A stretch of DNA of 64,000 nucleotides from Bacteroidota bacterium (GCA_024679565.1 JAIBDD010000002.1:54590-118589); one strand, 5' to 3'; positions 24,321 through 57,200 are shown, counted from the stretch's first letter. Made by a program: numbers and translations. The notes: generated by a model not told the origin, from the sequence alone.

Positions 24321-26459
24321 ATGAAATCTTCCATTTACACTACGCTTGGCTTTCTTATTGTTCTTATATCCTCAAATTCGTTTGCTCAGAACGTAGCACT
24401 CCACTTTGATGGAAGTGATGATGTGGTTCAAACATCAAACCCAGGTATTAGTGGTCAAAATGCACGAACAGTGGAAGCGATCATTCGCACCACCGCAAAT
24501 TGTGACCCTCAAAAAGGAGGTAAACAAAAGGTAATAGTTGATTGGGGTGCAGCGTCAACCGGTGCAAGGTTTACGCTAAATATAAAAACAGATAATGCCT
24601 TACGTTTAGAGGTTCAGGGATCTGGCATGAATGGTCAGACAGCTATAAATGACGGCAAATGGCACCATGTAGCTGCTGTGTATTCACAGGTTGGTAAGCA
24701 AAATAACATAGCCTTATATGTTGATGGTGTTTTAGATACAAGTGGAAGCATTCCTACTTCTATAAATACTGGTACTTCAATTAACGTTCGCATTGGTCAG
24801 CGTGTTGATGGTATTAATAGTTTTGACGGCGAGATTGATGAAGTACGCATTTTTAACCGCATTCGTACGCAGTCTGAGATTAAAGCAGATATGGGTAAAG
24901 AATACTGTTCCAACTCGAAAGGATTAGTCGGTTATTATAAACTTAACGAAGGCAATCCAGGTTCTACAAATACTTCGAACAAAACAGCAAAGGATTATTC
25001 ATCCACCAAAAAAAATGGAACCTTAAGTAACTTCAGTCTATCCGGTTCAAAATCCAATTGGGTCACTGGTGACACGCTAACTGGTGGAGACACTAAGTCA
25101 ACTGAAGATGTGTTTGGATGTTATACCTACACGACTATAGATGGTACGGTCTATTCGTCTCCTGGCAAGTATACCCGTAAAATTCCAAATGCGGCTGGTT
25201 GCGATTCTCTAATAACGTTAAACGTTACACTTGGGAGGGTTTACCATTTCACTCGTCATACGGTTTGTGACTCCTTTGTAATGCCTTTGGGAAGAGTAGT
25301 CTACCAAACTGGTTTCTATCGTGATACAATAAAGGGTGTTGCACCGAAAGGTTGTGATTCTGTATTAATCATGGAGGTAAAGGTCAACCCAAAAGTTGAA
25401 ACTCAAGAAGACATAGTGGTGTGTGATTCCATTTCGATTAATAACAAGTGGTACTTCTCTGATATCGAACTTTCTCAAAATGGAACGGCAGTAACTGGGT
25501 GCGACTCTATTCACTCAATAGATATAACAGTGAACGAATCAAGCTCAGCAACTTTGTTTGAAACACATTGCGACCGATTTACCTCTACCCTAGGGAATAC
25601 GTATACCAAATCGGGTATTTATAAAGAAAAACTATCTAAGGCTAATAAGTATAAGTGCGATTCACTAGTAGTTATTGATTTAACCATAAACAATAGCAGT
25701 AATGTTACTATTCCTTTGCAGGACTGCGACTCATTTATCTCGCCTGCAGGTTATCACTATCTCACAACAGGAGTCCATACTGAACGCTATACTTCACAAT
25801 ATGGATGTGACTCAATAATTGCCTACGACCTTACTTTATCCGAAACCAAAAGCAGTGAGAATAAATTAGAAGTTTGCGATTCTGTTTTAATCAACAATGT
25901 TTGGCGTACAAATACAGGCATTATTAAATATACAGATGCAACCAGTGCCGGCTGTGATTCTAATGTTACCATCGATCTTAAGGTTGTCAAACCCGATATG
26001 TCCGTAGATATTTCAAATCACATGCTTTCTGTTACTCAAGAAGCAATATCATATCAATGGATTGATTGTAACACAAACAAAGAAATATCAGGAGCAACTA
26101 AGAAGTCGTACACAGCTACATACTCCGGTTCATTTGCCTGTATTATTAACCTTAACAGCTGTACAAAACAAACCGATTGTTATGACGTTATTGGTCTTGC
26201 AGCAGGAAACACGACTAAATCACAGAATCGAATTCGTGTTGTGCCAAATCCAAATAACGGTTCATTTCATATAGTCAGTTATTCCAATTATCGAATTATT
26301 AGTTATGATTTAAGAGACTTAACCGGTCGTCTTATTATGAGTAAAGATGGGTTAAATGACAGTAATGTTCATCTTAACCACAAACTAATACCAGGCGTGT
26401 ATATTCTAAATATTGGTACTGGAAACACGCACGAATCAATTCGATTGAGCGTTCAATAA
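24321..26459 (+). CDS. secreted LamG/ConA-like lectin-domain protein with six ~47-aa Cys repeats and type-A T9SS CTD
   Basis: Signal peptide. LamG-like block (ALHFDGSDDVV...GKWHHVAAVY...LYVDGV...EIDEVRIFNR). Six repeats, each with two CDS motifs (vCDSf...GxYxxxxxxxxGCDSxxxxxLtv). C-terminal VVPNPNNGSFHIV...GVYILNIGTGNTHESIRLSVQ. Confidence 0.75.
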   Translation: MKSSIYTTLGFLIVLISSNSFAQNVALHFDGSDDVVQTSNPGISGQNARTVEAIIRTTANCDPQKGGKQKVIVDWGAASTGARFTLNIKTDNALRLEVQGSGMNGQTAINDGKWHHVAAVYSQVGKQNNIALYVDGVLDTSGSIPTSINTGTSINVRIGQRVDGINSFDGEIDEVRIFNRIRTQSEIKADMGKEYCSNSKGLVGYYKLNEGNPGSTNTSNKTAKDYSSTKKNGTLSNFSLSGSKSNWVTGDTLTGGDTKSTEDVFGCYTYTTIDGTVYSSPGKYTRKIPNAAGCDSLITLNVTLGRVYHFTRHTVCDSFVMPLGRVVYQTGFYRDTIKGVAPKGCDSVLIMEVKVNPKVETQEDIVVCDSISINNKWYFSDIELSQNGTAVTGCDSIHSIDITVNESSSATLFETHCDRFTSTLGNTYTKSGIYKEKLSKANKYKCDSLVVIDLTINNSSNVTIPLQDCDSFISPAGYHYLTTGVHTERYTSQYGCDSIIAYDLTLSETKSSENKLEVCDSVLINNVWRTNTGIIKYTDATSAGCDSNVTIDLKVVKPDMSVDISNHMLSVTQEAISYQWIDCNTNKEISGATKKSYTATYSGSFACIINLNSCTKQTDCYDVIGLAAGNTTKSQNRIRVVPNPNNGSFHIVSYSNYRIISYDLRDLTGRLIMSKDGLNDSNVHLNHKLIPGVYILNIGTGNTHESIRLSVQ

Positions 26460-26517: not shown

Positions 26518-28002
26518 TTACCGCTGAATAACAATACGTGCCCTGTATTCTTGATTCCCTTGTTTAACGTCAAGAATATATATTCCACTTGATAAACCAG
26601 AAACATTAGACGCATACAAGCCATTTGTGCGCTTTGTGGTTTCCACGTTCATTAATTTGCCCGTTAAATCCGTAAAAGTAATTGCAGCGTTTCCTGTGTT
26701 GATCGTTGATTTAATCGTAACCAAATTATTACTAGGATTTGGATATACGACATAACTTATCGTCGTTTTAGATACATTTGGAATGTTTACGAATCGTGCT
26801 GTATTGCCATCGCCATAGTCAACATCTAGTGTATCGCCAAGATACAACCAAGGAGGATTAAACTGTGCTGTTTCTCCTAAACAGTATTGGCTTCGGAAAG
26901 GATTTATGGAAAAATTTAAAATGTCTGCTCCAGTTCCAATGGTTAGTGTGCGTGTTGTTGTGTAGCTAGTGCCACACATATATTCAAATGTGGCTTCGAC
27001 AGTATATGAACCATCCTTGGTATACGCATGTATAAAACTGTTATTGTTGTTAGACAATGTGTCAAATGATCCATCTCCATAATTTAAGACCGTTCTAATG
27101 GCTGAATATGAACTTACAGAGCCGCGTAACTTTTGCCCTAAACACAGTTTGTCTGTGTTAAAGTAAATATTTCCATTTCTCATGAAAGAAGTAGTCACAT
27201 TGACTTTTTGCCTTGAGGTATCAATGCCGCATCCATTGTACGCAATAGCCATTACCTCATATTCACCAACAGACGGGTAACCATACTCTAATTCATCCAA
27301 TCTGGTATTCTTTCCGTCGCCTAAATAAACACGTAAACTGTCTAATGGTGAATTTCCTGGCCAAACACTAACGTTCACCAATTGGTTAGGGCACACCTCA
27401 GTTGGATTAATGCTTAACCCCCCATCTGGTTTGGCACGTGCGTCGTCTACAATCGTAACGACTTGACTACTTTCTTGGTCTCCACAAAAACCCTTAACCT
27501 TTAACTTAATGGTGTGCATACCCGTTGCCTTATACGTATGGCGCGGATACAATTGATTTGACGTTGTACCGTCTCCGAAATCCCACATTAGGCTGTCATA
27601 CCCATTGATATTACTCCACTCAGAAATCGTTAGAGACGTACCCAAACAATAGTAGCCATTGGTACTCGATTGATTCAAACTAAAGTTCGTTTCAATTTTA
27701 GGGTGCACGCGGATAAATATCTCTGCTGAATCTGTTGACATGCCGTTAGTGGCCGACAAAAGAACATAGTAGGTGCCAGGATTACCGAAATTCTTTTTAA
27801 TAACAGGGTTTATTGTTGAACTTGGCACTGTTCCATCACCAAAGTCCCATTGGTATAAAGAAGCCCCCTGACCCGTATACGTTAAAGTAACATCTTGACC
27901 CGTACAAATGATACTGTCCGACACGCTAAACGAAGCTATTACTTGAGCTTGAGCGTAACAATAAGTCGCAACAAATGCGAATAATAGTAATACTTTTTTC
28001 AT
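26518..28002 (-). CDS. PKD-repeat secreted protein with type-A T9SS CTD
   Basis: Start set at MKKVLLLFAFVATYCYAQAQ (28002). Several PKD signatures (WDFGDGT x2, YLGDGKN, NYGDGSF, DYGDGNT). C-terminal YPNPSNNLVTIKS...GIYILDVKQGNQEYRARIVIQR. Confidence 0.8.
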   Translation of the reverse strand: MKKVLLLFAFVATYCYAQAQVIASFSVSDSIICTGQDVTLTYTGQGASLYQWDFGDGTVPSSTINPVIKKNFGNPGTYYVLLSATNGMSTDSAEIFIRVHPKIETNFSLNQSSTNGYYCLGTSLTISEWSNINGYDSLMWDFGDGTTSNQLYPRHTYKATGMHTIKLKVKGFCGDQESSQVVTIVDDARAKPDGGLSINPTEVCPNQLVNVSVWPGNSPLDSLRVYLGDGKNTRLDELEYGYPSVGEYEVMAIAYNGCGIDTSRQKVNVTTSFMRNGNIYFNTDKLCLGQKLRGSVSSYSAIRTVLNYGDGSFDTLSNNNNSFIHAYTKDGSYTVEATFEYMCGTSYTTTRTLTIGTGADILNFSINPFRSQYCLGETAQFNPPWLYLGDTLDVDYGDGNTARFVNIPNVSKTTISYVVYPNPSNNLVTIKSTINTGNAAITFTDLTGKLMNVETTKRTNGLYASNVSGLSSGIYILDVKQGNQEYRARIVIQR

Positions 28003-28136
28003 GTCCTTTTTGTTACAAAGTTCCTGTGGTTTATCAGCTACCACACTGCTCAGAATCAGAAGAATCAACTGATTATCAGCACAAACATTTACAAACTTTG
28101 TAACTAACTTATGAGGTTACCCCCAGACATAAAAAG

Positions 28137-29185: not shown

Positions 29186-32100
29186 TTAATCAATTATCAG
29201 TTTTCTGTTTAAACTACCCTGATGCGTATTCAGTTCTAATATGTATATCCCTGATGTGAGTTTGCTATTTACTTCAATGCTTGTCCCACTAAGACCATTC
29301 TTTGTCAGTACAACTTTACCAAGTTGGTCATAAATAACCAATGTGCCATTTACGCACGCTTCATCAAGCTCAATCAAAAATTTGCCATCGTTTGGATTGG
29401 GGTAAAGCGCTCCAGTAATACTTTTCACATCCAATACACTACTCAATGTGTCTTTAGACACAATAACAGTATAGTCTTCCACTTCTCCACTTTCCAAACC
29501 ACATGGGTCAACCTCGTTTGATGTATATCTGCACACAACGCGCAGTCTTAGTTCTTTGTCAAGTACTACGTCACTAGGGATGGTGAACGTGCCCAAACTT
29601 GAATGACTGCCATCAATTTGACCCATATTTAGTCGCTCGTTACTTTCAAATTCTGCGTCTAAGTCGTAGTCAATCCAAGCCTCTACTTTGTTAAGCTCAA
29701 AATGATAATTAAGTTCCATCGAAAGCGTGTAGGTTTGGTTTTGCATCAGGTGGACGATGCTGTCTGTGTAATCACCATAGTACTCTTGGTTTGTCGTATT
29801 TGACATGCTTTCTAGTCCCACATATTTAATCCAATCAGCCCCTGTACCAGATCCCCCTCTGCCTTCACAATAAACAAAAGGTCGAACCCTGTAATGATAC
29901 CTGTAAGACGTTGTGATTTCACCACTGTTAGATTCTACTATCAACTTGAAGTATATATCGTCGCCTTCTTCTTCTGAAGGAATTCCCTGCTTCGACATCC
30001 ATGTGTTGCCAGAAGTGTTTTCAAGTTCAATTTCACTGCCTAAGGTTATGGCATTCTTTGACCACAATAACTTTGCATTCTTTACACCATTCTTTGATTC
30101 GATTTCTATAGTTACAACTTGATCAAAACCCTTTCTTGGTGTTCGATCTGTAACTACTTCGGTTGTGGAGACTTGCAAGATTCTTGGATAAGATGCTTTG
30201 GCAATTGTTGTATTTTCCCAAAGTCCACGTCCCCATGACGCTGCTCTTAATGTATTGCTTCCGTGATGTATTTCTAAGTCTTTAACGGTAACATTTGGCA
30301 GCTGGTCGTTATACAACGTCCACGAATTTGCATTCATGCTTTTGTAGTAAACACCTATCTCTCCACCTACATATATGTACGAAGAGTCAGATTGATCCAT
30401 TGTTACTGTTCGCAATGGCATATCTCCAAGGTTATACGTGATGTTTTGCCAACTCTGCCCTAAATCGTGTGATATGAATACTTTTTGATTGTCTCTTTGA
30501 TGTCGATTATAGGTGACAACAAGCGTACTATCTTTTAACGGATGAAATGCAATATCAGTCACACTATAATTAGGCAGATTTGAACGAATATCCGTCCATG
30601 TTTTACCCCCGTCTTGCGTAAGTCGGATAGTAGAATTTCTAGAAATCGCAATAATATCAGAATTGTTTTGAGCGATATCCGCATCCTTAACTAACCCAAT
30701 ATTGGGAGCACTGTAAAATTCCCAAGACACTCCAAAATCATCACTAACAAAAATTGAATCTGCAAAGTGATATAGTCTAAAGTGGTTTAAAGGGTCTAAC
30801 AACAATGGTGCTTCCCAGTCGGCTTGACCCGAACCACGTCTAGGGTTACCCACAGATGTTCGCGTTTGACCTCCATTTCTCGTTATGTTTCTCGATCCAT
30901 ATTGCCAGCTGCCTATCATCCAATCACTGTTAAGCGGTTGTACAATGCCTTCCATTCCATCACCACCATTCCATTCAACCCAACCTGCTTCTTTCAAAAT
31001 GCTGGTGCCGTTGTCTTGTGATCCTGCTATGTTCGCATAGATATTGGATTGGCTTAAACCCACAGCATAAAATTCACGAATCGCTGTACCATCATTCAGT
31101 CTCGTCCAAGTTGTACCATTATCCGAACTTTTTGCTAAATATCCATCCGTACCTAAATAAAATACGCCATTTAGGCATTCTGCTGTTCGAATATCCGCAT
31201 GTACATAAGCCGCATTTCTATTACTCCATTTCGTGACTTGTTTAAAGGTTTGACCTTCATCCGTACTTGCCTCCGTATCGACATAACCGTAAATCATGTT
31301 TTTTACGTCTAAATCCGACACGGCAAAGCCTAAACAGCTTTCGTCAGGATTTGATAAAAAGGTAAAAAATGCGCCTTGGTTTTTTGAGCGCCAAACACCA
31401 TTGGTAGACGCCACATACACATTGTTTGGTGCGCTTGGCGAAACGGCAATATGCAGTTTTGCATTATTGTTATCTGCAATTAGCGCAGAATTGTTCCAGG
31501 TTTTACCTGTATCGTTTGAGTACTTAAGATAATTTCTATCAGATTGATAATAATCGTATGCGTAAATACGGGCAGGGTTAGTTGGATGAAATTCCATGTC
31601 TGTATTCCTTCCAGAGAATACAAGCGTCCAAGTTTGCAAATTGTCTTTCGACAGATACATCCCATTCGACGTGCCTATGTATATTATTCCCGTTCTCGTC
31701 GGGTGAAACGCTATTTTGTAAATTCTATGATTTCTACCTAATCCACCAAAAGATGTTGCTAAGGGATTGAATTTCGTCTCAAACCACGTTGTTCCGCCAT
31801 CACTAGATCTGAAAAGACCATGTGTATTGGCATTGCCCCCTTGACGAGCGGCAATTAAAATATCGTTATTATCAGACGGATTAACACTCAAAGATTCTAC
31901 ACCTGAAACCACTAAGGTATCCGTCGTATTTTCCCAGTTCTTTCCACCATCTGATGTTCTCCAAAAACCACCGCTCCTTGATCCAAGGAATATTTGGTCT
32001 GTATTGGATGGGTTTACCCAAAACGTTTCAACCCTACCAATACCTGGAGAATAGTGCGAGGTGATGTTATTGGCATCCCAAGGTCCTAATTCTTCCCAGC

Positions 32101-32431
32101 CGTTTTCGAGTGCTTTTCCGTGTTTGTTAACTCGGCCGTTTGATACGTTTCGATAGCTTTCAATCGCACCAAGATCATAGGCATTTAGTCTATCTCCTGA
32201 AGGAAAATATTTGCTCTCGTTTTCGTTTTTCCAACGCTGATATCCTTTCCAACCGCTACCTTTCCCTGTACCATTTTTATCGAAATAGACTTCCGCTGAA
32301 TCAACAACTTCATAGAAATTGTAGTTGATGTCATCCATCATCCATTTGTAAGACTTTTCTTGACCAAAACCAAGCGTCGCTATTAATGAAATAGATACAA
32401 CTGCTATTAATTTTTTACTTCTCTTAAACAT
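29186..32431 (-). CDS. BNR/Asp-box (sortilin/VPS10-like) beta-propeller protein with GEVED domain and type-A T9SS CTD
   Basis: Start set at MFKRSKKLIAVVSISLIATLGFGQ (32431). At least 7 Asp-box motifs (SDGGKNW, SDGGTTW, NDTGKTW, TDEGQTF, SDNGTTW, QDGGKTW, HDLGQSW). GEVED motif (LESGEVEDYTVIV). C-terminal YPNPNDGKFLIEL...GIYILELNTHQGSLNRKLIID. Confidence 0.8.
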   Translation of the reverse strand: MFKRSKKLIAVVSISLIATLGFGQEKSYKWMMDDINYNFYEVVDSAEVYFDKNGTGKGSGWKGYQRWKNENESKYFPSGDRLNAYDLGAIESYRNVSNGRVNKHGKALENGWEELGPWDANNITSHYSPGIGRVETFWVNPSNTDQIFLGSRSGGFWRTSDGGKNWENTTDTLVVSGVESLSVNPSDNNDILIAARQGGNANTHGLFRSSDGGTTWFETKFNPLATSFGGLGRNHRIYKIAFHPTRTGIIYIGTSNGMYLSKDNLQTWTLVFSGRNTDMEFHPTNPARIYAYDYYQSDRNYLKYSNDTGKTWNNSALIADNNNAKLHIAVSPSAPNNVYVASTNGVWRSKNQGAFFTFLSNPDESCLGFAVSDLDVKNMIYGYVDTEASTDEGQTFKQVTKWSNRNAAYVHADIRTAECLNGVFYLGTDGYLAKSSDNGTTWTRLNDGTAIREFYAVGLSQSNIYANIAGSQDNGTSILKEAGWVEWNGGDGMEGIVQPLNSDWMIGSWQYGSRNITRNGGQTRTSVGNPRRGSGQADWEAPLLLDPLNHFRLYHFADSIFVSDDFGVSWEFYSAPNIGLVKDADIAQNNSDIIAISRNSTIRLTQDGGKTWTDIRSNLPNYSVTDIAFHPLKDSTLVVTYNRHQRDNQKVFISHDLGQSWQNITYNLGDMPLRTVTMDQSDSSYIYVGGEIGVYYKSMNANSWTLYNDQLPNVTVKDLEIHHGSNTLRAASWGRGLWENTTIAKASYPRILQVSTTEVVTDRTPRKGFDQVVTIEIESKNGVKNAKLLWSKNAITLGSEIELENTSGNTWMSKQGIPSEEEGDDIYFKLIVESNSGEITTSYRYHYRVRPFVYCEGRGGSGTGADWIKYVGLESMSNTTNQEYYGDYTDSIVHLMQNQTYTLSMELNYHFELNKVEAWIDYDLDAEFESNERLNMGQIDGSHSSLGTFTIPSDVVLDKELRLRVVCRYTSNEVDPCGLESGEVEDYTVIVSKDTLSSVLDVKSITGALYPNPNDGKFLIELDEACVNGTLVIYDQLGKVVLTKNGLSGTSIEVNSKLTSGIYILELNTHQGSLNRKLIID

Positions 32432-32465
32432 AGTATCCAAATGTAATTCATCTATTGTAAACTGA

Positions 32466-33758
32466 TTACCCCAATCCCCGTTTGTATGTTTCCAAAGCAC
32501 GAATCCTTGCCAATTTATGATCAACCATAGGGTTCGGATACTTCTCAGTTGACACTTCCGGAATCCATTTGGCGACATATTGCCATTGTCCATCAAATTT
32601 CCTTAACTGTTCGATGGGGTTAAATATCCTAAAATAGGGCGCTGCATCACATCCCGTTCCTGCTGCCCACTGCCAGTTTCCATTGTTTGAAGCCAGCTCG
32701 AAATCAAGCAGTTTAGAGGCAAAATATGCTTCCCCCCATCGCCAATCAATCAGAAGGTGTTTACACAAAAAACTAGCGGTGACCATGCGGACACGGTTAT
32801 GCATATACCCTGTTGCATTTAATTGTCGCATTCCGGCATCAACCATTGGGTACCCCGTATTGCCCGAACACCACTTCTCAAATTCTGACCTATCATTCCG
32901 CCATTCAATGCTATCGTACTTTCTCTTGAAATTATGTTCGACAACAGATGGAAAATGATACAAAATTTGCATAAAAAACTCGCGCCATATGAGCTCAGAC
33001 ACAAAAACCGCATTGTCTTTTACTTCACTCAGTATGGTTCTAATACCAATTGTTCCAAATCGCAAGTGCGGGCTTAGGTAGCTTGTTTTATCAACAGCTG
33101 GTAAATCTCGGTTTTGTGCATACCCTGATAAGTCGTCGATATTAAAGGGTTTAACCTCAATATTTGATTTTTCAAAACCTATTTCAGCAAGAGATAACGA
33201 CGCTCCAGCCGTTTTGTACCAGTTCGGTTTGCCTGGGTTTTCCATTGGTTTAACCTCGTTTAAATGTATGTGCTGAAGCCATCTGTTTTTAAAAGGAGTG
33301 TATACCGTATAAGGAGATCCATCTGCCTTAACCACTTCATTTTTTTCGACCATTACTTGGTCTTTAAAGGTGTTAAAAGGGATTTTTTTGGATTGAAGGA
33401 GTTCGTTAATTTTTTCGTCGCGATACCTCCCATAAGGTTCGTAATCGTGATTGGAATACACCGTTGCAATTTCCCAGTCTTTCATCAACGTCTTGAAAAC
33501 ATCTAACGGGTTTCCATTGAACATGAACAACCCTGATTGATGGCGGGTTAATTTTTGATGAATTTCTTTTAAACGCTCGTGGATAAAAGAAACCCGCGGG
33601 TCGTTTGAATCAAGCTCGTTTAGGATTTCATCATCGAAGATAAATATAGGGACGACAGGGTGCCCAGACTTCAACGCCTTGGATAAGCCCACATTGTCTT
33701 CCAATCGTAAATCACGACGAAACCAAAATACGGCAACTTGGTCTTTTTGATTAGTCAT
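32466..33758 (-). CDS. deoxyribodipyrimidine photolyase / cryptochrome-family flavoprotein
   Basis: N-terminal VFWFRRDLRLEDN. FAD-binding region WREFF, TGYPMVDAGMRQL, NNGNWQWAAGTG. Start set at MTNQKD. Confidence 0.85.
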   Translation of the reverse strand: MTNQKDQVAVFWFRRDLRLEDNVGLSKALKSGHPVVPIFIFDDEILNELDSNDPRVSFIHERLKEIHQKLTRHQSGLFMFNGNPLDVFKTLMKDWEIATVYSNHDYEPYGRYRDEKINELLQSKKIPFNTFKDQVMVEKNEVVKADGSPYTVYTPFKNRWLQHIHLNEVKPMENPGKPNWYKTAGASLSLAEIGFEKSNIEVKPFNIDDLSGYAQNRDLPAVDKTSYLSPHLRFGTIGIRTILSEVKDNAVFVSELIWREFFMQILYHFPSVVEHNFKRKYDSIEWRNDRSEFEKWCSGNTGYPMVDAGMRQLNATGYMHNRVRMVTASFLCKHLLIDWRWGEAYFASKLLDFELASNNGNWQWAAGTGCDAAPYFRIFNPIEQLRKFDGQWQYVAKWIPEVSTEKYPNPMVDHKLARIRALETYKRGLG

Positions 33759-33801: not shown

Positions 33802-36456
33802 CTACATTTGGTTCGGAATCTGTTCTGTCGAGAATTCGTATAACCTATCTGCCTCTTCTTCTTTTAGTCGTTTTACCAATTCTAAAGCATCTGGAACAAC
33901 GTCACTACACAACACAATTAACGACCCATCCACCGCGTTGTCTACCGCATGTTTTATGGCCTCAGATTCGGAAGGTATTATGGTTGTTTTAATGTTGGGA
34001 TCATGCATTTTGATTCCATCATCCAACATTTTTATCAACTCCTCCTCCGTTTTACCTCTTAATCGTTTGTCTTGACGAATGATAATCTCATCAAACATAT
34101 CAGCAGCGATGCTACCCATTTCATTATTGTCTTCTACTCTTCTGTCTCCAATTCCTGCTATAATACCGACCTTAACCGTGCACTCAATGTTTTCAATAAA
34201 TTGCTGAAGTGCTCGCATCCCAGCGGGGTTGTGGGCATAATCCAACAGTATTTTGAAGTTCTTAAAGTGGAATAAATTCAATCTTCCTGGCGTTTGGGTT
34301 GGTGAAGGAATAAACGTTTCTAAAGCTACTTTAATATCCTCGTTGCTAAATCCTTGAACGTGTGCAGCTAGTACTGCTGGCAACACATTCTGAATCATAA
34401 ATTTGGCCTTTCCTCCATACGTTAATGGAATATTTACCGCTTTGGATATTCTCATTTTCCATTCGCCACGGCAAATCGTGATATAGCCATTTTCGTAGAT
34501 AGCACTTAAGCCGTCTCGCTTTTGCATGGCTTTGATATGGATGTTTTCCTCGTCCATAGAGAACAGGGCCACATTACATTCCACCTTTTTTCTCATTTTA
34601 TAAACCAGATCATCATCGGCATTCAGGATGGCATAACCATTTGGAAGTACCGTTTCTGGAATTACACCTTTTACTGCAGCGAGTTGCTCGATGGTATGAA
34701 TTCCTTTAAGGCCTAAATGGTCGGCGGCCACATTGGTGACAATTCCAACATCGCAATTCTTAAACCCTAAACCTGCACGCAGCAATCCACCTCTCGCAGA
34801 TTCTAAAACCGCAAAATTGACTGTTGGGTCTTTCAATACAAATTCTGCGCTAGAAGGCCCTGTGCAATCTCCCTTCATCAAAAGTCTATTTTGAATATAC
34901 ACACCATCACTAGTCGTATATCCAACTTTGTAGCCTTTCATTTTCGCCATATAGGCAATCAAACGCGTGGTTGTTGTTTTCCCATTCGTTCCAGAAACAG
35001 CAACAATTGGAATTCTTGCGTTAGAACCTGGAGGGAATAATTTATCTATAACGGGTGCAGCAACATTGCGAGGTAAACCTGTGGTTGGTGCCAAATGCAT
35101 TCTAAACCCAGGGCCCGCATTAACTTCTAGCACCGCTCCTCTAGTATCCGCCAATGGCGTGCTGATATCAGAAGTCATTATGTCGATTCCGCAAATATCC
35201 AGTCCTATAATTTTAGAAATTCTTTCGGCCATAAATACGTTTGCTGGATGCACCACATCGGTTACATCTTCGGCCGTCCCTCCAGTACTTAAATTGGCGG
35301 TGTCTTTTAGTATTAACATTTCACCTTCAGAAATGACTGTGTCTACCGTATATCCCTTAGATTGAATCAACGTTTGTGTCAACTCATTCACCTTTATCGC
35401 GGTTAACACTTTTTCGTGTCCGTATCCACGTCTTGGGTCTTTGTTTACCTCGTCAATTAATTGTTGAATAGTTGATTTACCATCACCAATAACATGAGCC
35501 GGTGTTCTTTTTGCCGCAGCAACCAACTTGTGATTGATAACCAACAGTCGGTAGTCGTCACCCACAATAAACTTCTCAACGATTACCGCTCGAGACACCT
35601 TTTGCGCTTCTCTGAAGGCAACCAAAGCGTCTTCATAACTGTTTATGTTCACTGTAATTCCGCGACCGTGATTCCCATCGATTGGTTTAACCACTAGCGG
35701 AAAGCCAACATATCTGCAGGTCTCTTTCAAACTGCTTTCGCGTCTGATTATTTCTCCTCTTGGTACCTCAACTTCCGCCTGTTCTAAAAGATATTTTGTA
35801 TCCTCTTTGTCGCAGGCTAACTCTACGGCAATGTTGCTCGTTTCGCTTGTTACTGTGGCTTGAATTCTTTTTTGATTAGCTCCGTAACCCAATTGGCAAA
35901 GAGAATATTTATTTAACCTTAACCACGGTATGCCGCGTTTTTCTGCCTCTTCAACGATTGACCCAGTGCTTGGCCCGAGTCGTTCGTTTTCTCTTAAAAC
36001 ACGCATTTCTTGAATGTCTTCATCCAAGTCATATGATTCTCCACTAATTAATGCTTCACAAATGCGAACAGCAGCTCTCGCTGCATAGCGTCCCACATTT
36101 TCTTCCATGTACGCAAAAACCACATTATATACACCCTCTTCTCCATAACCACGTGTTCGTCCGAAGCCAACATCCATACCCGCTAAGGTTTGAATTTCTA
36201 GAGCAATGTGTTCAATAATATGACCCATCCAAGTGCCTTCTTCCACACGTTGAAAAAATCCACCTGGTGTACCCACTGAACATCTGTGGGCAAACATCGT
36301 AGGAAACATGTACTTTAACCTGTCTGCAAAACCATCAATTTTATCCGACGGTTTTTCTTCCATATCTTGAAGGTCAAGCACCATTACGATCAATCTGTGT
36401 CTTCTTACAGACCAATAATTTGGCCCTCGCATTGCTTGTATTTCTCTAATCTCCAT
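33802..36456 (-). CDS. cphA: cyanophycin synthetase
   Basis: 884 aa. N-terminal MRGPNYWSVRRHRLIVMVLDLQD...IDGF matches the CphA N-domain. Central ATP-grasp segment. C-terminal Mur-ligase-type P-loop VSGTNGKTTTTRLIAYM. Confidence 0.9.
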   Translation of the reverse strand: MEIREIQAMRGPNYWSVRRHRLIVMVLDLQDMEEKPSDKIDGFADRLKYMFPTMFAHRCSVGTPGGFFQRVEEGTWMGHIIEHIALEIQTLAGMDVGFGRTRGYGEEGVYNVVFAYMEENVGRYAARAAVRICEALISGESYDLDEDIQEMRVLRENERLGPSTGSIVEEAEKRGIPWLRLNKYSLCQLGYGANQKRIQATVTSETSNIAVELACDKEDTKYLLEQAEVEVPRGEIIRRESSLKETCRYVGFPLVVKPIDGNHGRGITVNINSYEDALVAFREAQKVSRAVIVEKFIVGDDYRLLVINHKLVAAAKRTPAHVIGDGKSTIQQLIDEVNKDPRRGYGHEKVLTAIKVNELTQTLIQSKGYTVDTVISEGEMLILKDTANLSTGGTAEDVTDVVHPANVFMAERISKIIGLDICGIDIMTSDISTPLADTRGAVLEVNAGPGFRMHLAPTTGLPRNVAAPVIDKLFPPGSNARIPIVAVSGTNGKTTTTRLIAYMAKMKGYKVGYTTSDGVYIQNRLLMKGDCTGPSSAEFVLKDPTVNFAVLESARGGLLRAGLGFKNCDVGIVTNVAADHLGLKGIHTIEQLAAVKGVIPETVLPNGYAILNADDDLVYKMRKKVECNVALFSMDEENIHIKAMQKRDGLSAIYENGYITICRGEWKMRISKAVNIPLTYGGKAKFMIQNVLPAVLAAHVQGFSNEDIKVALETFIPSPTQTPGRLNLFHFKNFKILLDYAHNPAGMRALQQFIENIECTVKVGIIAGIGDRRVEDNNEMGSIAADMFDEIIIRQDKRLRGKTEEELIKMLDDGIKMHDPNIKTTIIPSESEAIKHAVDNAVDGSLIVLCSDVVPDALELVKRLKEEEADRLYEFSTEQIPNQM

Positions 36457-36601
36457 ATCCTTCTATGTTATTATGCTGGTAAATGTGACCAAAAGCCACT
36501 AATGACGCGATAGAAGGCGTTGTTGTATACGCCTGCTGTACAATAATAACTTTTTTAATAATTAATGAAATTATACTTTGTTTTATTTACAAATTTGCGG
36601 G

Positions 36602-37465
36602 ATGGCAAAAGGGACACTAATTCCAATTGGAGGTAATGAGGATAAAGGAGATGGTTTAACAGAAAACTACTCGTTAGATTTTATCGAACAGGGAATATTA
36701 TCACACGTTGTTCGCGAATGTGGCGGAACAGATTCTTTAATTGTAGTTATTCCAACAGCATCAAGTATTCCTGAAGAAGTAGGTGAAAATTACCTTGACG
36801 CCTTTCAAAAATTAGGGTGTAACAATGTTTTGGTTTTAGACATTCGAAAAAAAGAAGACTCAGAAACTGCACATGCCATCGATCTGATTACCAGAGCCAA
36901 TTGTGTTATGTTTTCTGGCGGAGATCAGTCAAAAATTGCGAAAAAGATAGGTGGCACCGCTATTCATAAAATTCTAATGGACCGATATCAGGAAGATAAA
37001 GGTTTTGTGATTGCTGGAACAAGTGCTGGTGCGATGGCCATGTCCAATGAAATGATTGCAGGTGGAAGTAGTACGGAAGCATTTATTAAAGGTGCTGTTA
37101 AAATGTACACGGGTTTGGGTTTGGCTCCAGGCATAATGTTCGATACCCACTTCATAATGCGTGGTAGGTTTGGAAGAATAAGTGAAGCTGTTGCTAAGCA
37201 CCCAGAATTAATAGGCATAGGCTTAGCTGAAGACACTGGCTTGGTGATTAAAGAGGGTAATGACCTGAAAGTAATTGGGTCAGGGATGGTCATCATTTTT
37301 GATGGTAGCAGCTTGGTGCACAACAACGAAAAAATATTAGAGCCTGGTACACCAATGACCATAACCGACTTGAAGGTTCACGTGCTCTCTAATTCAGATA
37401 GATTTTCATTGACAGAAAGAAAGGTTACGGTACTTCCAATTGACGCACCTTTCGAGTTCGACTAA
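36602..37465 (+). CDS. cphB: cyanophycinase (peptidase S51)
   Basis: GTLIPIGGNEDK N-terminus. Ser nucleophile block VIAGTSAGAMAMS. Diverges from cphA across a 145-bp promoter region. Start set at MAKGTL (36602). Confidence 0.85.
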   Translation: MAKGTLIPIGGNEDKGDGLTENYSLDFIEQGILSHVVRECGGTDSLIVVIPTASSIPEEVGENYLDAFQKLGCNNVLVLDIRKKEDSETAHAIDLITRANCVMFSGGDQSKIAKKIGGTAIHKILMDRYQEDKGFVIAGTSAGAMAMSNEMIAGGSSTEAFIKGAVKMYTGLGLAPGIMFDTHFIMRGRFGRISEAVAKHPELIGIGLAEDTGLVIKEGNDLKVIGSGMVIIFDGSSLVHNNEKILEPGTPMTITDLKVHVLSNSDRFSLTERKVTVLPIDAPFEFD

Positions 37466-37471
37466 TACTTG

Positions 37472-38404
37472 CTATTTGTAAATCGCAACCTGGGTTTCTT
37501 GACCAGAAATATGTTGCGCTCTATACATCCCTTCGGTATTAAATGGCATAGTTATATTGCCTTCTGAATCGACAGCAATTAATCCCCCATCTCCACCGAT
37601 TTCAAGTATTCTCTTGTTAATTACTTCGTTAGCAGCCTCCTCAAGTGTGCAACCTTTAAATTCTATAAGTGCGCTTACCTCATAAGCAACAACACCTCGA
37701 ATAAAGAACTCTCCACTGCCGGTACAAGAAACAGCACACGTTTTATTATTTGCATAGTTCCCAGATCCAATCATTGGGCTATCACCTATTCTCCCAAAAC
37801 GCTTGTTAGTCATTCCGCCAGTAGATGTAGCAGCAGCTACGTTGCCATTTTGATCTAATGCAACAGCACCTACAGTCCCAAATTTGTGATCCTTAGACTT
37901 AGAATGATCGAGTTGAAAAGAATCCGTGTCTTTAATTTCTTGCCATTGGTCGTAACGCAATTGGTCAAAGAAGTATGCCTCGTCCACTGTTTTGACGTTT
38001 TGAGATTTTGCAAATTCCATAGCTCCATCTCCACCTAAAAAAACGTGTTCAGAATTATCCATGACCTTGCGTGCCAACTGAATTGGGTTTTTAATCCCAG
38101 ATATTAATCCTACTGCACCTGCTTCTTTGTTGGACCCGTCCATTATGGAGGCATCCATTTCATGTGCGCCATCTGCCGTGAAGACACTTCCTTTGCCTGC
38201 ATTAAACAGAGGCGAATCTTCCAAGACTGTAACCGCTTTTTCAACGGCATCGACAGCTGAACCACCATTTTGCAAAATTTCGTATCCAGCATTAATACTG
38301 GCTTCGAGTGATGCTTTATACGCTGCTTCTTTACTGGTCGTCATCATACCTTTAACCAAGGTTCCTGCCCCACCATGTATAGCGATAGAAAATTTATTCA
38401 TCAT
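37472..38404 (-). CDS. iaaA: isoaspartyl dipeptidase / plant-type L-asparaginase (Ntn hydrolase)
   Basis: IAIHGGAGT N-terminus. Autoprocessing/nucleophile region GTVGAVALDQNGNVAAATSTGGMTNKRFGRIGDSPMIGSGNYA. Confidence 0.85.
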   Translation of the reverse strand: MMNKFSIAIHGGAGTLVKGMMTTSKEAAYKASLEASINAGYEILQNGGSAVDAVEKAVTVLEDSPLFNAGKGSVFTADGAHEMDASIMDGSNKEAGAVGLISGIKNPIQLARKVMDNSEHVFLGGDGAMEFAKSQNVKTVDEAYFFDQLRYDQWQEIKDTDSFQLDHSKSKDHKFGTVGAVALDQNGNVAAATSTGGMTNKRFGRIGDSPMIGSGNYANNKTCAVSCTGSGEFFIRGVVAYEVSALIEFKGCTLEEAANEVINKRILEIGGDGGLIAVDSEGNITMPFNTEGMYRAQHISGQETQVAIYK

Positions 38405-38412
38405 TCAATCTA

Positions 38413-39453
38413 TTACTTGTACCACTTCTTTTTAAGCCAAAACGATAAACGCACCAACAAAATTAATGCCGGTACTTCTACTAATGGTCCTATCACACCT
38501 GCAAATGCTTGCTTACCATGTATACCAAAAACAGCGATGGCTACAGCAATGGCTAATTCAAAGTTATTACCAGCGGCAGTAAACGAAACTGAAGCGTTCT
38601 GTGCGTAAGTCGCTCCCAACAATTTGCTAAATAGGAAACTGATAAAAAACATCACGACAAAATAGATAACCAATGGAATCGATATTCTTAGTACGTCCAT
38701 AGGTAAATCAACAATGTACTCACCCTTTAGCGAAAACATCACGACAATGGTAAATAGCAGAGCAACAAGAGTCATGGGTGATATTTTGGGTATAAACGTA
38801 TTGTTGTACCAGTCTAACCCTTTTTGTTTGACCAACAACGCTCTTGTAACAATACCGGCTAAAAAAGGAATACCTAAATAAATGGCCACACTCTCGGCAA
38901 TTGTGCCAATAGATATATCGACTATGGCCCCTTCAAAGCCAAATAGTGGTGGCAGTTTGGTAATAAACAACCAAGCGTAAAAACTATATCCAAATACTTG
39001 AAAAACACTATTTAACGCAACTAAGCCAGCACCATACTCACTACTTCCGTCAGCTAAGTCGTTCCAAACCAGAACCATAGCGATACAGCGCGCCAAACCA
39101 ATTAAAATCACCCCGACCATGTATTCAGGGTAGTCATGCAAAAATGTCACGGCCAATACGAACATCAAAACTGGTCCGATTATCCAGTTAAGCACCAGCG
39201 ATAACGTAAGTACTTTTACGTTCTTAAAAACCACAGGAAGTAGGCTATAATTAACTTTGGCTAATGGTGGATACATCATGAGTATAAGGCCAATGGCAAT
39301 TGGAATATTGGTTGTTCCATGACTCAAAGAATCAACGACTTTGGCTGTGTTTGGAACGAAATATCCAATGGCAACACCAAGCGCCATTGCGATAAAAATC
39401 CAAAGTGTTAAGTATTGGTTTAAGAAGCTAAGTTTTTTTGTGTTTTTAGACAT
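38413..39453 (-). CDS. acr3: arsenite efflux permease, ACR3 family
   Basis: 346 aa with ~10 TM helices. N-terminal [27 protein letters not shown] is typical of Acr3. Confidence 0.85.
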
Positions 39454-39461
39454 TGTTAAGG

Positions 39462-40055
39462 TTATTGTGAAAATAGGAATTTCATTTCTGTTGCAATCTT
39501 TTCAGAAGTTTTCAAATAGGTTTCAGTTTCAGTCTCTGTACCATCCGACGCTTTAGGGTCAATATACGTTAAGGGGATTCGCTTAACCGCATGCGGAATA
39601 ACAGGACAGTTTTGATCGGCATGATCGCATGTCATAATGGCTATAAATCGTTTGGGATTCGCTTCATCAGAATGGAGCTTCGAAAAAAGTGAAATAGGTT
39701 CTTTCTCCGCATCGAAATTTACATGATATACGGGATTGTTTAGTCCGGTTCGACTCACTTGGAAACCGGTCACCTCGAGTGCATGTACTGTTCGAGGGTT
39801 ACACTCGGTTATCTCTACCCCGCCCGAAAAGCAATTCACATCATACGCGAAATACTCCGATAAGCATTGTGCCCACACTTGAGCAAACTGGCTTCGTCGA
39901 GAGTTGTGGGTGCAAATGAAGTTAAGGTTAACTTCTCCATTTTGCTCCATCTCTTGTTTTATTTGCTCCGACACGTCACGCAACTGGGCCTGCCGTGGTA
40001 AAGGAATAGCCTCAACAGACAGGTCGTCGATATATATTTTTAATGATCCCTCCAT
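39462..40055 (-). CDS. arsC: arsenate reductase-like low-molecular-weight phosphotyrosine phosphatase with N-terminal extension
   Basis: P-loop CTHNSRRS (CX5R) lies about 58 aa into the protein (58 from MEGSL). Unusual ~45-60 aa N-terminal extension. Start at MEGSLKIY (40055) avoids overlap with the upstream gene. Confidence 0.65.
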
Positions 40056-40056
40056 A

Positions 40057-40530
40057 TTAACAGCAACCACCGCCCGGTGTACAGCACGATTCAGCATCGG
40101 GTGTTAATGACGCCAAGCTCTTCTGTACTTTTTCCATAGGTATGCCGCAATTGTCTTTAGCTAAGCAATCTGTATAGGTGTTTGTTAAAACAAAATCTTT
40201 CCCGTCGAAACTCAGCCCATACTTTCCAATCGTATTGGATTGATATTCGACCTCAATATCACCATCGGTCAATTCAAGTATGTTTTCAGACAAGTTGATG
40301 ATGTCCAAAAATTTGGTAGGAGCAATTCGATGATCATAATCGTTGGCTTCCCAGAGCTGGAAGTTAATCGTGTTGTCCTCTCTTACTTTTCCACCGCAAT
40401 CGATGAAATGTTTTGACACTGCTCCAATTTCTGTCACATGAAAATGTTGTGGAACATACGAACCGTTAGGCAACTTGAAGCGAACTTCGCCTATTGATGT
40501 TAGCTGTGATTTTACTTCTGATAATTTCAT
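40057..40530 (-). CDS. ars-operon-associated protein (DUF6428-like) with C-terminal vicinal-cysteine tail
   Basis: Start set at MKLSEVKSQ. Ends ...ESCCTPGGGCC. Lies between arsR and arsC on the same strand with 1-10 bp gaps. Confidence 0.5.
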   Translation of the reverse strand: MKLSEVKSQLTSIGEVRFKLPNGSYVPQHFHVTEIGAVSKHFIDCGGKVREDNTINFQLWEANDYDHRIAPTKFLDIINLSENILELTDGDIEVEYQSNTIGKYGLSFDGKDFVLTNTYTDCLAKDNCGIPMEKVQKSLASLTPDAESCCTPGGGCC

Positions 40531-40540
40531 ATTTATACTT

Positions 40541-40873
40541 TTAACAACAGTTGTCTCCGCAAGAGGTAAATTGATCAAACAATTGATTGAGCATGTTTCT
40601 AATCTCTTCCCATCGCAAAGGGTTTATACAATAACTTACAGAAGTTCCCTCAATGGAACCCTGAATGATACCAACGTCTTTGAGTTCTCGTAAATGTTGA
40701 CTAATCGTCGCCTGTGCCAAACCCAACTCAGCCACCAAATCTCCATTTATACAAGCATTTGTTTTGAGTAAATGTTGAACAATGGCTATCCGTGCTGGGT
40801 GTGCAAAGGCTTTTGAAACCGTTGCGAGCTCATTTTGCACGTTGTCAAATAAATTTTTCTTAGTAACCCTCAT
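40541..40873 (-). CDS. arsR: ArsR/SmtB family metalloregulator
   Basis: HTH LAQATISQHLRELKDVGII. Canonical ELCVCDL replaced by NACINGDL. C-terminal SCGDNCC cysteine cluster. Confidence 0.8.
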   Translation of the reverse strand: MRVTKKNLFDNVQNELATVSKAFAHPARIAIVQHLLKTNACINGDLVAELGLAQATISQHLRELKDVGIIQGSIEGTSVSYCINPLRWEEIRNMLNQLFDQFTSCGDNCC

Positions 40874-54215: not shown

Positions 54216-57200
54216 ATGCGTAATTATCGTTCAGCTCATACTCTGCAAAATAGAAACTTGCTGCCCAACATTTTCCGATGGGCGTCTTCACTAATTTTCT
54301 TACTGTCCACATTTTCAGCGACTTACGGACAAGGCGTTGGTGTAAATGAGGATGGTACTGATCCGGACCCATCTGCCATTCTTGACGTAAAGTCAAATTC
54401 AAGAGGTATGTTGGTTCCACGACTCACAAAAGCCGTAAAGCTAGGAATACCCGGCCCTGCCAACGGTTTGTTGGTGTACCAAACCGACGACACGATTGGT
54501 TTTTGGTATTATGACATAAATAGGTGGAAACCCGTTTTTCAAAATATCACGGCAGGTAATGGCTTAACGGGCAACAAAATTGAAGGGTATGGCACCATTA
54601 ATTTAGAACCTACAGGAATTACGACCGGTCAATATGGAAATGCCGACTCTATACCACAGTTTACGGTTAATGCATTCGGACAGTTGGTGTTTGCGCGCAA
54701 TGTTGCTTTGCGAGAACAAGATGGCATTATTGGAAATGAAATAACAGACACCGCAAATAGTTTAGGACTGCTTAACAGAGCAGGTTCTGGAACCTCTGCT
54801 GATCCATACACCGTTGGTGTAAACAGTGGAAGTTCACAAAATGATATTTGGATGTGGGACGGCAACAATTGGGTGTTAACCCAGTTTCCATTTGAACAAG
54901 ACAGTATAATCGGAAATGAAATTAGTGATACCGCCCAATCTAGGGGCATATTGATTCGGAATGGTCGTGGAAACTCCGCAAATCCATACACACTAGGGGT
55001 AACAGCTGGTTCGGCTATCGGGGATGTTTTTATGTGGGACGGTAATAAGTGGGTTTCAAATCCCATTGTTTTCCCAACAGAACAAGACGGCATTATTGGA
55101 AACGAACTTACGGATACCACTAACGCTAGGGGCGTCATAAACCGTCAAGGAAGTGGCACCACAGCAAATCCGTATAAAATATCAGTAAACGCAGGAAACA
55201 ATGTCGGTGACGTTTGGATGTGGGACGGCAATAAATGGACGTCATCATCTGTCACTATTCCAAGCGAACAAGACAGTGTTATTGGAAACGAGGTAACGGA
55301 TACAATTAATGCACGTGGCGTGTTAAACCTCTACGGTTCAGGCACACAAACAAATCCATTAAAAATGGGAATAGAACCAGGCAACTCGACTGGTGATGTG
55401 TGGATGTGGAATGGCTCCTCTTGGGTGCCCTCTCAGATTACTCACCCACCAGTTATTATTCCAAAAGAAAAAGACAGTGTCATTGGTAACGAAATTGCAG
55501 ATACATTTAACACGTATGGTTTGATTGTCAGACAAGGCAGCGGAACAGATGTTGACCCTTATACCATAGGAGCAAAACCTGGAACCAGCGCAGGACAATC
55601 TTTAGTGTGGGATGGAACAAAGTGGGTGCTTACAACCATCGTTATTCCATTGGAAAAAGACAGTGTCATTGGTAATGAAATTGCAGATACACTGGGGTCT
55701 AATGGGATTTTAACAAGGGGCGGAACTGGGGTCGACGCAGACCCATTTACAGTTGGCATAAACAGTGGTTCAGCCTCCGGTGATGTTTGGATGTGGAACG
55801 GTACTTCTTGGGTGCCTACACAAATCACGCACCCAAATGAAGTGGATGGAATAATTGGTAATGAGTTGACTGATACAATAAACGCAAGAGGTGTTTTGCA
55901 GCGTTCAGGATCTGGAACGGTAGCGAACCCATACAAAATTGGGGTAACGACAGGTAAAAGCAACGGAGACGTATGGATGTGGAATGGCTCGAATTGGGTA
56001 CCGTCACAAATCGTTCACCCGAACGAGGTTGATGGTATTGTGGGTAATGAAGTTACAGACACCATTGCCAATGGCTTCTTAAACTTAACTGGTGCAGGTA
56101 CCGCAGCTAGCCCTAAAAAGGTGGGACTAAAGTCTGGTAATACAGTAGGAGATGTTATTGTTTGGGATGGCACAACATGGGTGCCCGGTTATTTAGACCG
56201 AAACACGTTGGATATGGCCTATGACGAAGGCGGTGCTGGAAATGGTAGGACAATTACCGCCGATAATGGCGCAGTAGAAATAAAAGGAGCTGATGGGTTT
56301 TTGGTTGACGGAAAAGTTGGGACAGGCGCTACAGCGGGTTCCATTGGTGCAAGTACACGTTTACACTTTAACCCAAGAACATCTGCATTTCGCGCAGGAA
56401 CTGCTGTAGCAACAGAGTGGGACGCAGCCAATTTGGGGCTTTACTCTACAGCTTTTGGATATGGCTCGCTTGCTTCAGATGACTACACATTTGCTGCCGG
56501 TAAAGGCGCAAGTGCCGTTGGTGATCACAGTATTGCCATCGGTGATAGTACAGTAACTCTACTTGAGTATTCCATTGCCATGGGAAATAGGTCGGTGACA
56601 GGTGGTAAAAACACAATGGCCATTGGAACAGGAAATACCGCATATGGTCAATACTCCTTTATTACAGGAATTAACTCTAGATCATTAGGTACAAATTCTG
56701 GAATATTTGGTGAAGAGTGTTTTGTATTAAGTGGATACAAACATGGCTATGCCTTTGGTCATAGAGATACCGTAAAGGGCGATTATGCTGTGGCCATCGG
56801 TCATAATGCATATTCTGAAGGAACTGGAGCGGTTGCCATTGGATTTAACGTGCGCACAAATAACCCGTATTCTGTCGCTATTGGAAACAATGCCGATGCT
56901 ATTGCTGACAGGTCTGTGGCTATAGGAAGCTTTGTGTCGACCAACCTAAAAAATGGCTCATTCATATTTGGTGACGGAAGTACAACAACAACCATGTTTA
57001 GTCCTGCTCAACACACCATGACTATGCGTTTTAACAACGGGTATAGACTTTACTCCAAATCAGATTTAACTACTGGTGTTTACATGCTGAATGGCGGTAC
57101 ATCATGGACTTCGGTTTCGGATAGAAACATGAAAGAAAATTTTGAAGATATAAATGGAGAAGACCTTCTCGATAAAATAGAAGATCTACCCATTACTAAA

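Follow-up and report, generated by a model that had tools for sequence, protein, structure and literature searches.

Sharon & Schmeing (Sci Rep 2023) searched 27,349 complete genomes and found cphA1, the gene for cyanophycin synthetase 1, in 1,614 of them, comprising 79 cyanobacteria, 86 Bacteroidota, 903 Betaproteobacteria and members of other groups (PMC10206079). Where a genome has both cphA1 and a cyanophycinase gene, the two are clustered in 81% of cases, and cphA1, cyanophycinase and iaaA are clustered in 49 of the 153 genomes that have all three, while in a control cphA1 was not clustered with an unrelated housekeeping gene in 955 genomes (PMC10206079). The IaaA of one such cphA1-cphB-iaaA cluster, from Roseivivax halodurans, hydrolyses β-Asp-Arg, and IaaA or IadA was present in 22% of the cphA1-bearing Bacteroidota, whose dipeptidase was called 'undiscovered' (PMC10206079). 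The cphA of Flavobacterium psychrophilum has been annotated and is transcriptionally regulated (PMC9723704). The dipeptidase of Anabaena is deliberately kept under separate control from cphB. Here we describe a locus of this kind, consisting of cphA, cphB and an iaaA-like gene at positions 33802-38404 of a 64,000-nucleotide stretch of DNA from a Bacteroidota bacterium (GCA_024679565.1, JAIBDD010000002.1:54590-118589; "the window" below means this whole stretch).

Six-frame open reading frames (ORFs) contain all three genes at the coordinates proposed in an earlier note, which had been made from the sequence of the window. cphA (33802..36456, minus strand) encodes a CphA1 of 884 residues, cphB (36602..37465, plus strand) an intracellular-type cyanophycinase of peptidase family S51 with 287 residues counted from its ATG, and the iaaA-like gene (37472..38404, minus strand) an isoaspartyl (β-aspartyl) peptidase/class 2 L-asparaginase of 310 residues, an N-terminal nucleophile (Ntn) hydrolase. 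cphA and cphB diverge from a spacer of 145 bp (36457..36601), the length given in the earlier note, when the ATG of cphB is taken as its start. The longest cphB ORF (36578-37465, plus strand) opens with a TTG at 36578, and its first ATG lies at 36602. Because the position of the TTG is occupied by TTC in the closest relative (L001, a metagenome-assembled genome labelled uncultured Bacteroidia bacterium), and because alignments to homologues, to the TIGR02069 profile and to PDB 7uqv set in at residues 3-6 of the protein read from the ATG, the gene probably starts at ATG 36602. At the other end of cphB, the iaaA-like gene converges on it tail to tail, with 6 bp between the two stop codons (37466..37471). 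The gaps of 145 and 6 bp place the locus well inside the published cluster definition of at most 5 kb of intergenic DNA (PMC10206079), in a different phylum from the alphaproteobacterial R. halodurans cluster. The GC content of 0.40-0.42 across the locus is unremarkable against about 0.39-0.40 nearby.

We conclude that the trio is an ordinary member of this already described gene cluster, recognised by curated models. Judged by homology, it very probably forms a module, complete in itself, for storing cyanophycin inside the cells of a marine or aquatic bacterium of the Flavobacteriales.

The synthetase CphA

CphA covers positions 1-861 of the 862 in the cyanophycin-synthetase equivalog model TIGR02068 with 1254.2 bits (cut-off 850, E=0), and scores 1178.5 bits against NF010623 (cut-off 877). 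As the earlier note had described, the 884-residue chain holds an N domain, an ATP-grasp G domain and a Mur-ligase-like M domain (Mcore and Mlid) with its P-loop. Pfam places the N domain (Cyanophycin_syn, PF18921) at residues 25-137 (36046-36384), Mur_ligase_M at residues 487-697 (34366-34998) and Mur_ligase_C/Mlid at residues 724-851 (33904-34287), and the G domain extends over about residues 159-475 (35032-35982) around a RimK/ATP-grasp Pfam match at residues 215-318; all lie on the minus strand. This is the N-G-M architecture of SuCphA1 (Synechocystis sp. UTEX2470; 7lg5, 7lgj and 7txu) and TeCphA1 (Thermosynechococcus; 7wac). The best solved structures for CphA are these cyanobacterial CphA1s (7lg5, E=9.7e-297; 7wac, E=4.5e-288), with 52% identity to SuCphA1 (7lg5) across residues 2-863 (861 aligned), and its 884 residues compare with chains of 879 and 910 residues in the solved cyanobacterial enzymes. 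CphA is nearer to the cyanobacterial CphA1s (about 960-990 bits) than to the two other solved CphA1s, 7lgm and 7lgn (about 600 bits, with alignments starting only from residues 63-76). Its host is a heterotrophic flavobacterium rather than a cyanobacterium.

To locate the catalytic residues, printed alignments were mapped onto residues with roles documented in the literature and then checked by translation; the roles in the G and M domains were taken from PMC9427784 and PMC9262961. In the G domain, the phosphate loop IDGNHGR (residues 259-265; 35662..35682, minus strand) supplies His263, which corresponds to His267 of SuCphA1 and TeCphA1, and its partner Arg303 (35548-35550, minus strand) corresponds to Arg309. 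The G site as a whole is identical to that of SuCphA1: H263, R303, E212, R317, N388, S390, R452 and G450 match H267, R309, E215, R323, N394, S396, R458 and G456. The P-loop of the M domain, GTNGKTT (residues 489-495; 34972..34992, minus strand), is likewise identical, with K493/T494 at K499/T500, and the Mg ligand E552 (E558) and the pair D579-H580 (D585/H586; 34717-34722, minus strand) are kept. The N domain carries a zinc-peptidase-like Cx19HxxEH motif (36208..36282, minus strand), formed by C59 (36280-36282) and H79-I-I-E82-H83 (36208-36222), and its H57, C59, R70, H79, E82, H83, E87 and R100 are all identical to SuCphA1. CphA therefore shares with SuCphA1 and TeCphA1 all tested catalytic and substrate residues, including the Cx19HxxEH motif, and every residue at which mutation abolishes or weakens CphA1 activity is retained (E215, H267, R309, R323, N394, S396, R458, D585/H586, K499/T500 and C59/H79/E82/H83 in the reference). 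The residues equivalent to S603 and K293 of SuCphA1 differ, as does the one equivalent to T522, to which we return below.

The cryptic Cx19HxxEH site of Synechocystis CphA1 cleaves cyanophycin into primers, and loss of the N-domain site by E82Q makes SuCphA1 primer-dependent (PMC9262961). Since this zinc site is intact here, CphA is predicted to be a complete, primer-independent CphA1. Such primer independence would be of interest for biotechnological production of cyanophycin, and the complete motif is common to 83% of nr70 CphA1s (PMC9262961).

Related enzyme families fit the protein poorly. GshAB scores 209 bits against a cut-off of 425 and MurE 129 against 373, and the NCBIfam scores for the other Mur ligases and for RimK also fall far under their own cut-offs, whereas that for TIGR02068 is far over. 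The structures 8fxh (642 aa, deposited under the name 'RimK domain-containing protein ATP-grasp') and 7ta5 (629 aa, 'Glutathione synthase'), two shorter chains that we regard as CphA2s, match CphA only across residues 134-557, with E values of about 1e-60. We recognised CphA2, a dipeptide polymerase, by the loss of the M-domain P-loop and of Mlid (PMC9427784) in a chain of about 630-640 aa, and rejected this assignment for CphA, which keeps both elements. Because the G and M domains are not degenerate and the best match is neither a Mur ligase nor another ATP-grasp paralogue, the two outcomes that the earlier note had named as grounds for abandoning its call, the identification as CphA stands.

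The cyanophycinase and the isoaspartyl peptidase

CphB passes the cyanophycinase equivalog model TIGR02069 over all of its positions (1-250 of 250; 221.9 bits, cut-off 126.6, E=9e-66) and matches three solved cyanophycinase chains, among them 7uqv (E=6.5e-51, 43% identity) and the Synechocystis PCC 6803 enzyme 3en0 (E=3.7e-39, 32% identity). The nucleophile Ser141 lies in the GTSAGA motif that the earlier note had pointed out (37016-37033, plus strand), and its triad partners are His183 (37148-37150) and Glu210 (37229-37231). With the residue roles taken from PMC3235067, S141, H183 and E210 correspond to the reference triad S132/H174/E201, and the pocket residues Q109, D181, R187, R189 and R192 to Q101, D172, R178, R180 and R183, all of them kept. 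The single change at these sites is T182 in place of the reference Q173, a substitution also found in the active extracellular enzyme CphE. CphB thus shares with 3en0 and 7uqv the S51 fold family, the GxSxG motif, the Ser-His-Glu triad, an Arg-rich pocket and the lack of a signal peptide, at modest identity and with 11 residues inserted close to the N-terminus when compared with 7uqv. Its N-terminus, MAKGTLIPIGGNEDKG, shows no hydrophobic leader by inspection, with residue 3 aligning to residue 6 of 7uqv. Compared with their cytoplasmic homologues, CphB and the IaaA-like protein both lack any N-terminal extension, so we read both, again by inspection, as intracellular.

The IaaA-like protein matches PF01112 (Asparaginase_2) over profile positions 2-309 of 309 (386.8 bits, E=8.6e-116), in agreement with the Ntn-hydrolase assignment in the earlier note. 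Its best solved relative is the precursor of Escherichia coli EcAIII (2zak, E=3e-92), to which it is 49% identical over the full length, and it also matches both chains of the R. halodurans IaaA structure 8dqm (E=2.6e-46 and 3.2e-39), an enzyme of the same EcAIII type. We used as reference the EcAIII residues whose roles are given in PMC9248843, namely the autocleavage site Gly178/Thr179, the triad Thr179-Thr197-Thr230, and Asn67, Arg207, Asp210, Gly231 and Gly233. The autocleavage site is found here as Gly176/Thr177 (37874-37879, minus strand) and R205-I-G-D208 lies at 37781-37792 (minus strand); N68, G176, T177, T195, R205, D208, T228, G229 and G231 are kept. The protein therefore has the Gly/Thr site, Thr triad and Asp-binding residues of EcAIII (2zak and 2zal), and its membership of the EcAIII/IaaA type, by family and by active site, is established at the level of sequence. 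Its gene is linked to cphB, whereas E. coli has no cyanophycin genes (PMC10206079). A glycosylasparaginase was rejected, as the bit score is about 141 for the flavobacterial glycosylasparaginase and 312 for EcAIII (about 113 for taspase) and the protein has no leader.

Carried over from the characterised homologues, these assignments suggest how the module would work. The G domain of CphA would convert the C-terminal backbone carboxylate of the chain to an acyl-phosphate and then add Asp, the M domain would ligate Arg onto the side-chain carboxylate of that Asp, and the enzyme would alternate the two additions as the chain grows, while the N domain would tether the polymer and probably also clip it into primers. 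When the reserves are mobilised, CphB, as a cytoplasmic serine peptidase, would free β-Asp-Arg dipeptides, and IaaA, after cleaving itself at Gly176/Thr177, would split these into free Asp and Arg. This logic of synthesis, dipeptide release and dipeptide hydrolysis, which the earlier note had proposed, is supported by homology, through equivalog-level profiles, solved homologues, catalytic residues and the synteny of the three genes.

Conservation of the trio and competing explanations

A scan of one genome per species gave at least 596 stretches encoding relatives of CphA, and the best 80 of these were examined. All 80 are non-cyanobacterial, with CphAs 74-91% identical to the one described here, and they come from Flavobacteriaceae (Kordia, Polaribacter, Winogradskyella, Aequorivita, Psychroserpens and others), Crocinitomicaceae, Saprospiraceae, Cyclobacteriaceae and Balneolaceae. 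Where the flanks were sufficient, cphA, cphB and iaaA occur together in 70 of 74 loci, and 67 of the 74 have the order and orientation of the window, with iaaA converging on cphB and cphB diverging from cphA. Within these 67, iaaA lies no more than 150 bp from cphB in 39, and the cphB-iaaA gap is 6-30 bp in about 20. Kordia algicida OT-1 (L006) and Winogradskyella sp. R77965 (L026) are cultivated examples that have the three genes. The closest relative, L001, is collinear with the window through a 2-oxoacid dehydrogenase E1 gene, the ars genes, the trio, a photolyase gene and a gene for a large type IX secretion system (T9SS) cargo protein. The exact CphA protein, with identical neighbours, also recurs on ENA and JGI metagenome contigs of up to 194 kb from at least 51 collection blocks, so the source is an uncultured organism that has been sampled often. 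The earlier note had held the three-gene arrangement to be uncommon outside cyanobacteria, and this part of it is not supported: only 79 of the 1,614 cphA1 genomes are cyanobacterial, 49 clustered trios are on record (PMC10206079) and 70 of the 74 loci with sufficient flanks have the set. By the published survey, the arrangement is of a described kind and no rarity outside cyanobacteria.

When all ORFs of 90 aa or more from the 80 loci were clustered all against all, only the cphA, cphB and iaaA families proved to be present in most loci. The next commonest real family, DNA polymerase I, occurs in 38 of the 80, and other neighbours are unrelated housekeeping or glycan-degradation genes. No further conserved module gene, whether transporter, regulator or peptidase, emerged from this clustering.

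A second, longer Asparaginase_2 paralogue (329-350 aa) lies on the other side of cphA, about 1-6 kb downstream, in 22 relatives (L007, L010, L012, L013, L015, L018-L020, L022, L025-L029, L040, L041, L047, L052, L062, L063, L066 and L067). In the one example inspected it lies near genes for a GH92 α-mannosidase-like protein and a major facilitator superfamily transporter, and it is probably a glycosylasparaginase for N-glycan breakdown, outside the cyanophycin module. No such second paralogue is found near the trio in the window.

The intergenic regions bear on how the trio would be expressed. Divergent transcription from the 145-bp spacer would allow synthesis and degradation to be regulated separately. 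Flavobacterial sigma-A promoters carry a -7 box of the form TAnnTTTG (PMC9723704), and the spacer holds three near-matches to it: CAAATTTG (36590-36597, plus strand, toward cphB) and TATTATTG (36548-36541, minus strand, toward cphA), both conserved in L001, and TACTTTGT (36574-36581, plus strand), which is not. Promoters in this spacer we infer from such motifs; the position of CAAATTTG would imply a leaderless or nearly leaderless cphB mRNA. In a comparison that covered L001 and 67 other relatives, a TAnnTTTG box points toward cphB about 32 nt from its ATG in 53 of 69 spacers, and TATATTTA stands about 37 nt upstream of the cphA ATG in 54 of 69, often inside a longer conserved block, TATATATTTATAATCTTTCAC. 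This block is strongly conserved across many genera (in the spacers of L004-L048 and others, at locus coordinates of about 7880-8000) and, being longer than a -7 box requires, may also contain a site bound by a regulator. In the window and L001, this spacer is replaced by a different sequence common to the two; between them, the promoter-proximal 68 nt or so are conserved, but not the presumed leader of cphA, which has diverged.

We rejected a riboswitch or other structured RNA in the spacer or in the leader of cphA, since no Rfam family matched anywhere in the window and the putative leader folds no better than its shuffles (z=-1.0). A generic scan for sigma-70 promoters and terminators was uninformative for a Bacteroidota genome, its counts being no higher than in shuffles (11 promoter-like sites against 19.7 expected, and 7 terminator-like sites against 6.0). 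At the far end of cphB, the 6-bp junction leaves no space for an intergenic terminator, and the convergent cphB and iaaA transcripts would therefore have to overlap or end within the opposite gene.

The alternative that survives best grants the cphA-cphB pair as a functional unit and denies iaaA a part in it. The Asparaginase_2 gene would then be a housekeeping isoaspartyl peptidase/L-asparaginase, the last gene of an arsR-DUF6428-arsC-acr3 unit, and its position would be meaningless. This arsenic-resistance operon (38413-40873, minus strand), which the earlier note had missed, comprises arsR (40541-40873), a DUF6428 gene (40057-40578), an arsC-like gene of the low-molecular-weight-phosphatase type (39462-40097) and acr3, for an ACR3 arsenite efflux protein (38413-39453), and no convincing terminator separates acr3 from iaaA, which follows 8 bp further on. 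The published 22% incidence of IaaA or IadA in cphA1-bearing Bacteroidota (PMC10206079) would suit this explanation, as would the promiscuity of the R. halodurans enzyme (RhIaaA), the roles of IaaA outside cyanophycin metabolism, and the score of the protein below the NF007589 cut-off. The relatives speak otherwise: iaaA adjoins cphB in 70 of 74 loci from several families, whereas the ars operon stands at this position only in the window and L001, which suggests a lineage-specific insertion next to the three conserved genes. The conserved partner of iaaA is thus cphB and not the ars genes. The published control, in which cphA1 and an unrelated housekeeping gene did not cluster, points the same way. 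The 3′ end of acr3 also holds an exact TAnnTTTG box, TAATTTTG (38458..38465, minus strand), 53 nt ahead of the iaaA start codon, which may give iaaA a promoter of its own even though the gene abuts the ars operon; with a frequency of one such motif per about 2.6 kb of single strand in the window, a hit within 100 nt is suggestive, not proof. On balance we regard the housekeeping explanation as improbable.

Less probable still, and in our view very unlikely, is a 'cyanophycin utilisation locus' that mainly scavenges cyanophycin or β-aspartyl dipeptides from cyanobacteria or algae rather than serving a nitrogen store of the cell's own. Scavenging clusters of cyanophycinase and dipeptidase are documented, including one in the Bacteroidota member Flammeovirga pacifica, the present host, a heterotroph equipped with a T9SS, has numerous secreted proteins and TonB-dependent receptors, and the Thr of CphB at the Q173 position recalls extracellular CphE. 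Scavenging loci, however, combine cyanophycinase, dipeptidase and transporter without cphA1, and here cphA1 is intact and full-length. CphB and IaaA moreover start without extension or hydrophobic leader, no transporter is conserved with the trio in relatives, and the adjacent ACR3 belongs to an arsenite-efflux family.

That intact genes make a non-classical product or play a non-classical role, such as a soluble Lys-containing polymer or a transient sink for proteolysis-derived amino acids, is the least likely of the three: polymer composition is not readable from sequence, and co-expression of F. psychrophilum cphA with secreted metalloproteases in the presence of fish suggests a peptide-derived amino-acid supply (PMC9723704), but all Asp- and polymer-binding residues of cyanobacterial CphA1 are kept, nothing in the sequence suggests altered specificity, and the idea is a variation within the storage explanation more than a true alternative to it.

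The storage module itself has points that weigh against it. In CphA, the Mg-ligand T522 of SuCphA1 is replaced by Ser516, a conservative change. The IaaA-like protein scores 350.3 bits against NF007589, the E. coli β-aspartyl-peptidase equivalog, under its cut-off of 567, so that this test does not establish the protein as an orthologue of E. coli IaaA at equivalog stringency; the cluster-encoded IaaA characterised elsewhere is promiscuous (PMC10206079), so this one need not be dedicated to cyanophycin. iaaA follows the arsR-DUF6428-arsC-acr3 operon by 8 bp on the same strand, which makes read-through possible, and a motif scan found no exact TAnnTTTG box in the 145-bp cphA/cphB spacer. Finally, the literature searched contained no experimental report of cyanophycin in this organism or its close relatives.

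A broader proposal goes beyond the locus itself. Across marine Flavobacteriales and allied Bacteroidota, iaaA-cphB-cphA would be inherited as one unit, and the 'undiscovered' dipeptidase would be the cluster-linked IaaA, maybe specialised for β-Asp-Arg and maybe coordinated with cphB through overlapping convergent transcripts across the 6-bp junction. We hold this doubtful, though less so than any of the three alternatives above. Almost all of the relatives have a linked iaaA (70 of 74 loci), against the published 22% with IaaA or IadA; our sample consists of the closest relatives of this CphA, as species representatives, so the two figures are not directly comparable.

Flanking genes and biological meaning

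Beyond the trio, the window encodes four predicted T9SS cargo proteins (24321-26459, plus strand; 26518-28068 and 29186-32596, minus strand; 57484-59787, plus strand). Three have a type A Por_Secre_tail sorting domain, one of them a 1136-aa BNR/Sortilin-like protein with a GEVED domain, and the fourth combines PKD domains with a type B CHU_C domain. They agree with the T9SS-bearing host of the earlier note and support a Bacteroidota origin. The longest ORF of the large cargo protein (TTG at 32596) shares about 130 bp (32466-32596) with the 3′ end of the photolyase gene. Gene calls on identical metagenome contigs give this protein 1104 aa, so translation probably begins some 32 codons after this TTG, which would make the overlap largely an artefact of ORF definition.

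Two further genes are noted in passing. At 54216-57464 (plus strand), a 1082-aa adhesin- or tail-fibre-like protein carries YadA-head repeats and a C-terminal Peptidase_S74 (endosialidase chaperone) domain, within a stretch at 52-58 kb whose GC content is 0.428, against about 0.39-0.40 in the rest of the window. At 21196-24012 (plus strand), a 938-aa carbamoyl-phosphate synthase large subunit matches NF003671 over positions 1-924 of 1058 and thus appears to be without the C-terminal region of the profile. Carbamoyl-phosphate synthase supplies the arginine pathway; this gene is 10 kb away from cphA, and in the relatives the two are not linked.

The importance of the locus beyond annotation is small. 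Mildly useful to specialists is the final dipeptidase step: left mostly unaccounted for in Bacteroidota by the published survey, it is covered in the sampled relatives by an IaaA-type gene that is almost always linked to cphB. For the organism itself, the trio means that an uncultured flavobacterium of aquatic habitats can probably store nitrogen and carbon in the form of cyanophycin and regain all of it, which would fit the feast-and-famine life of particle- and bloom-associated Bacteroidota.

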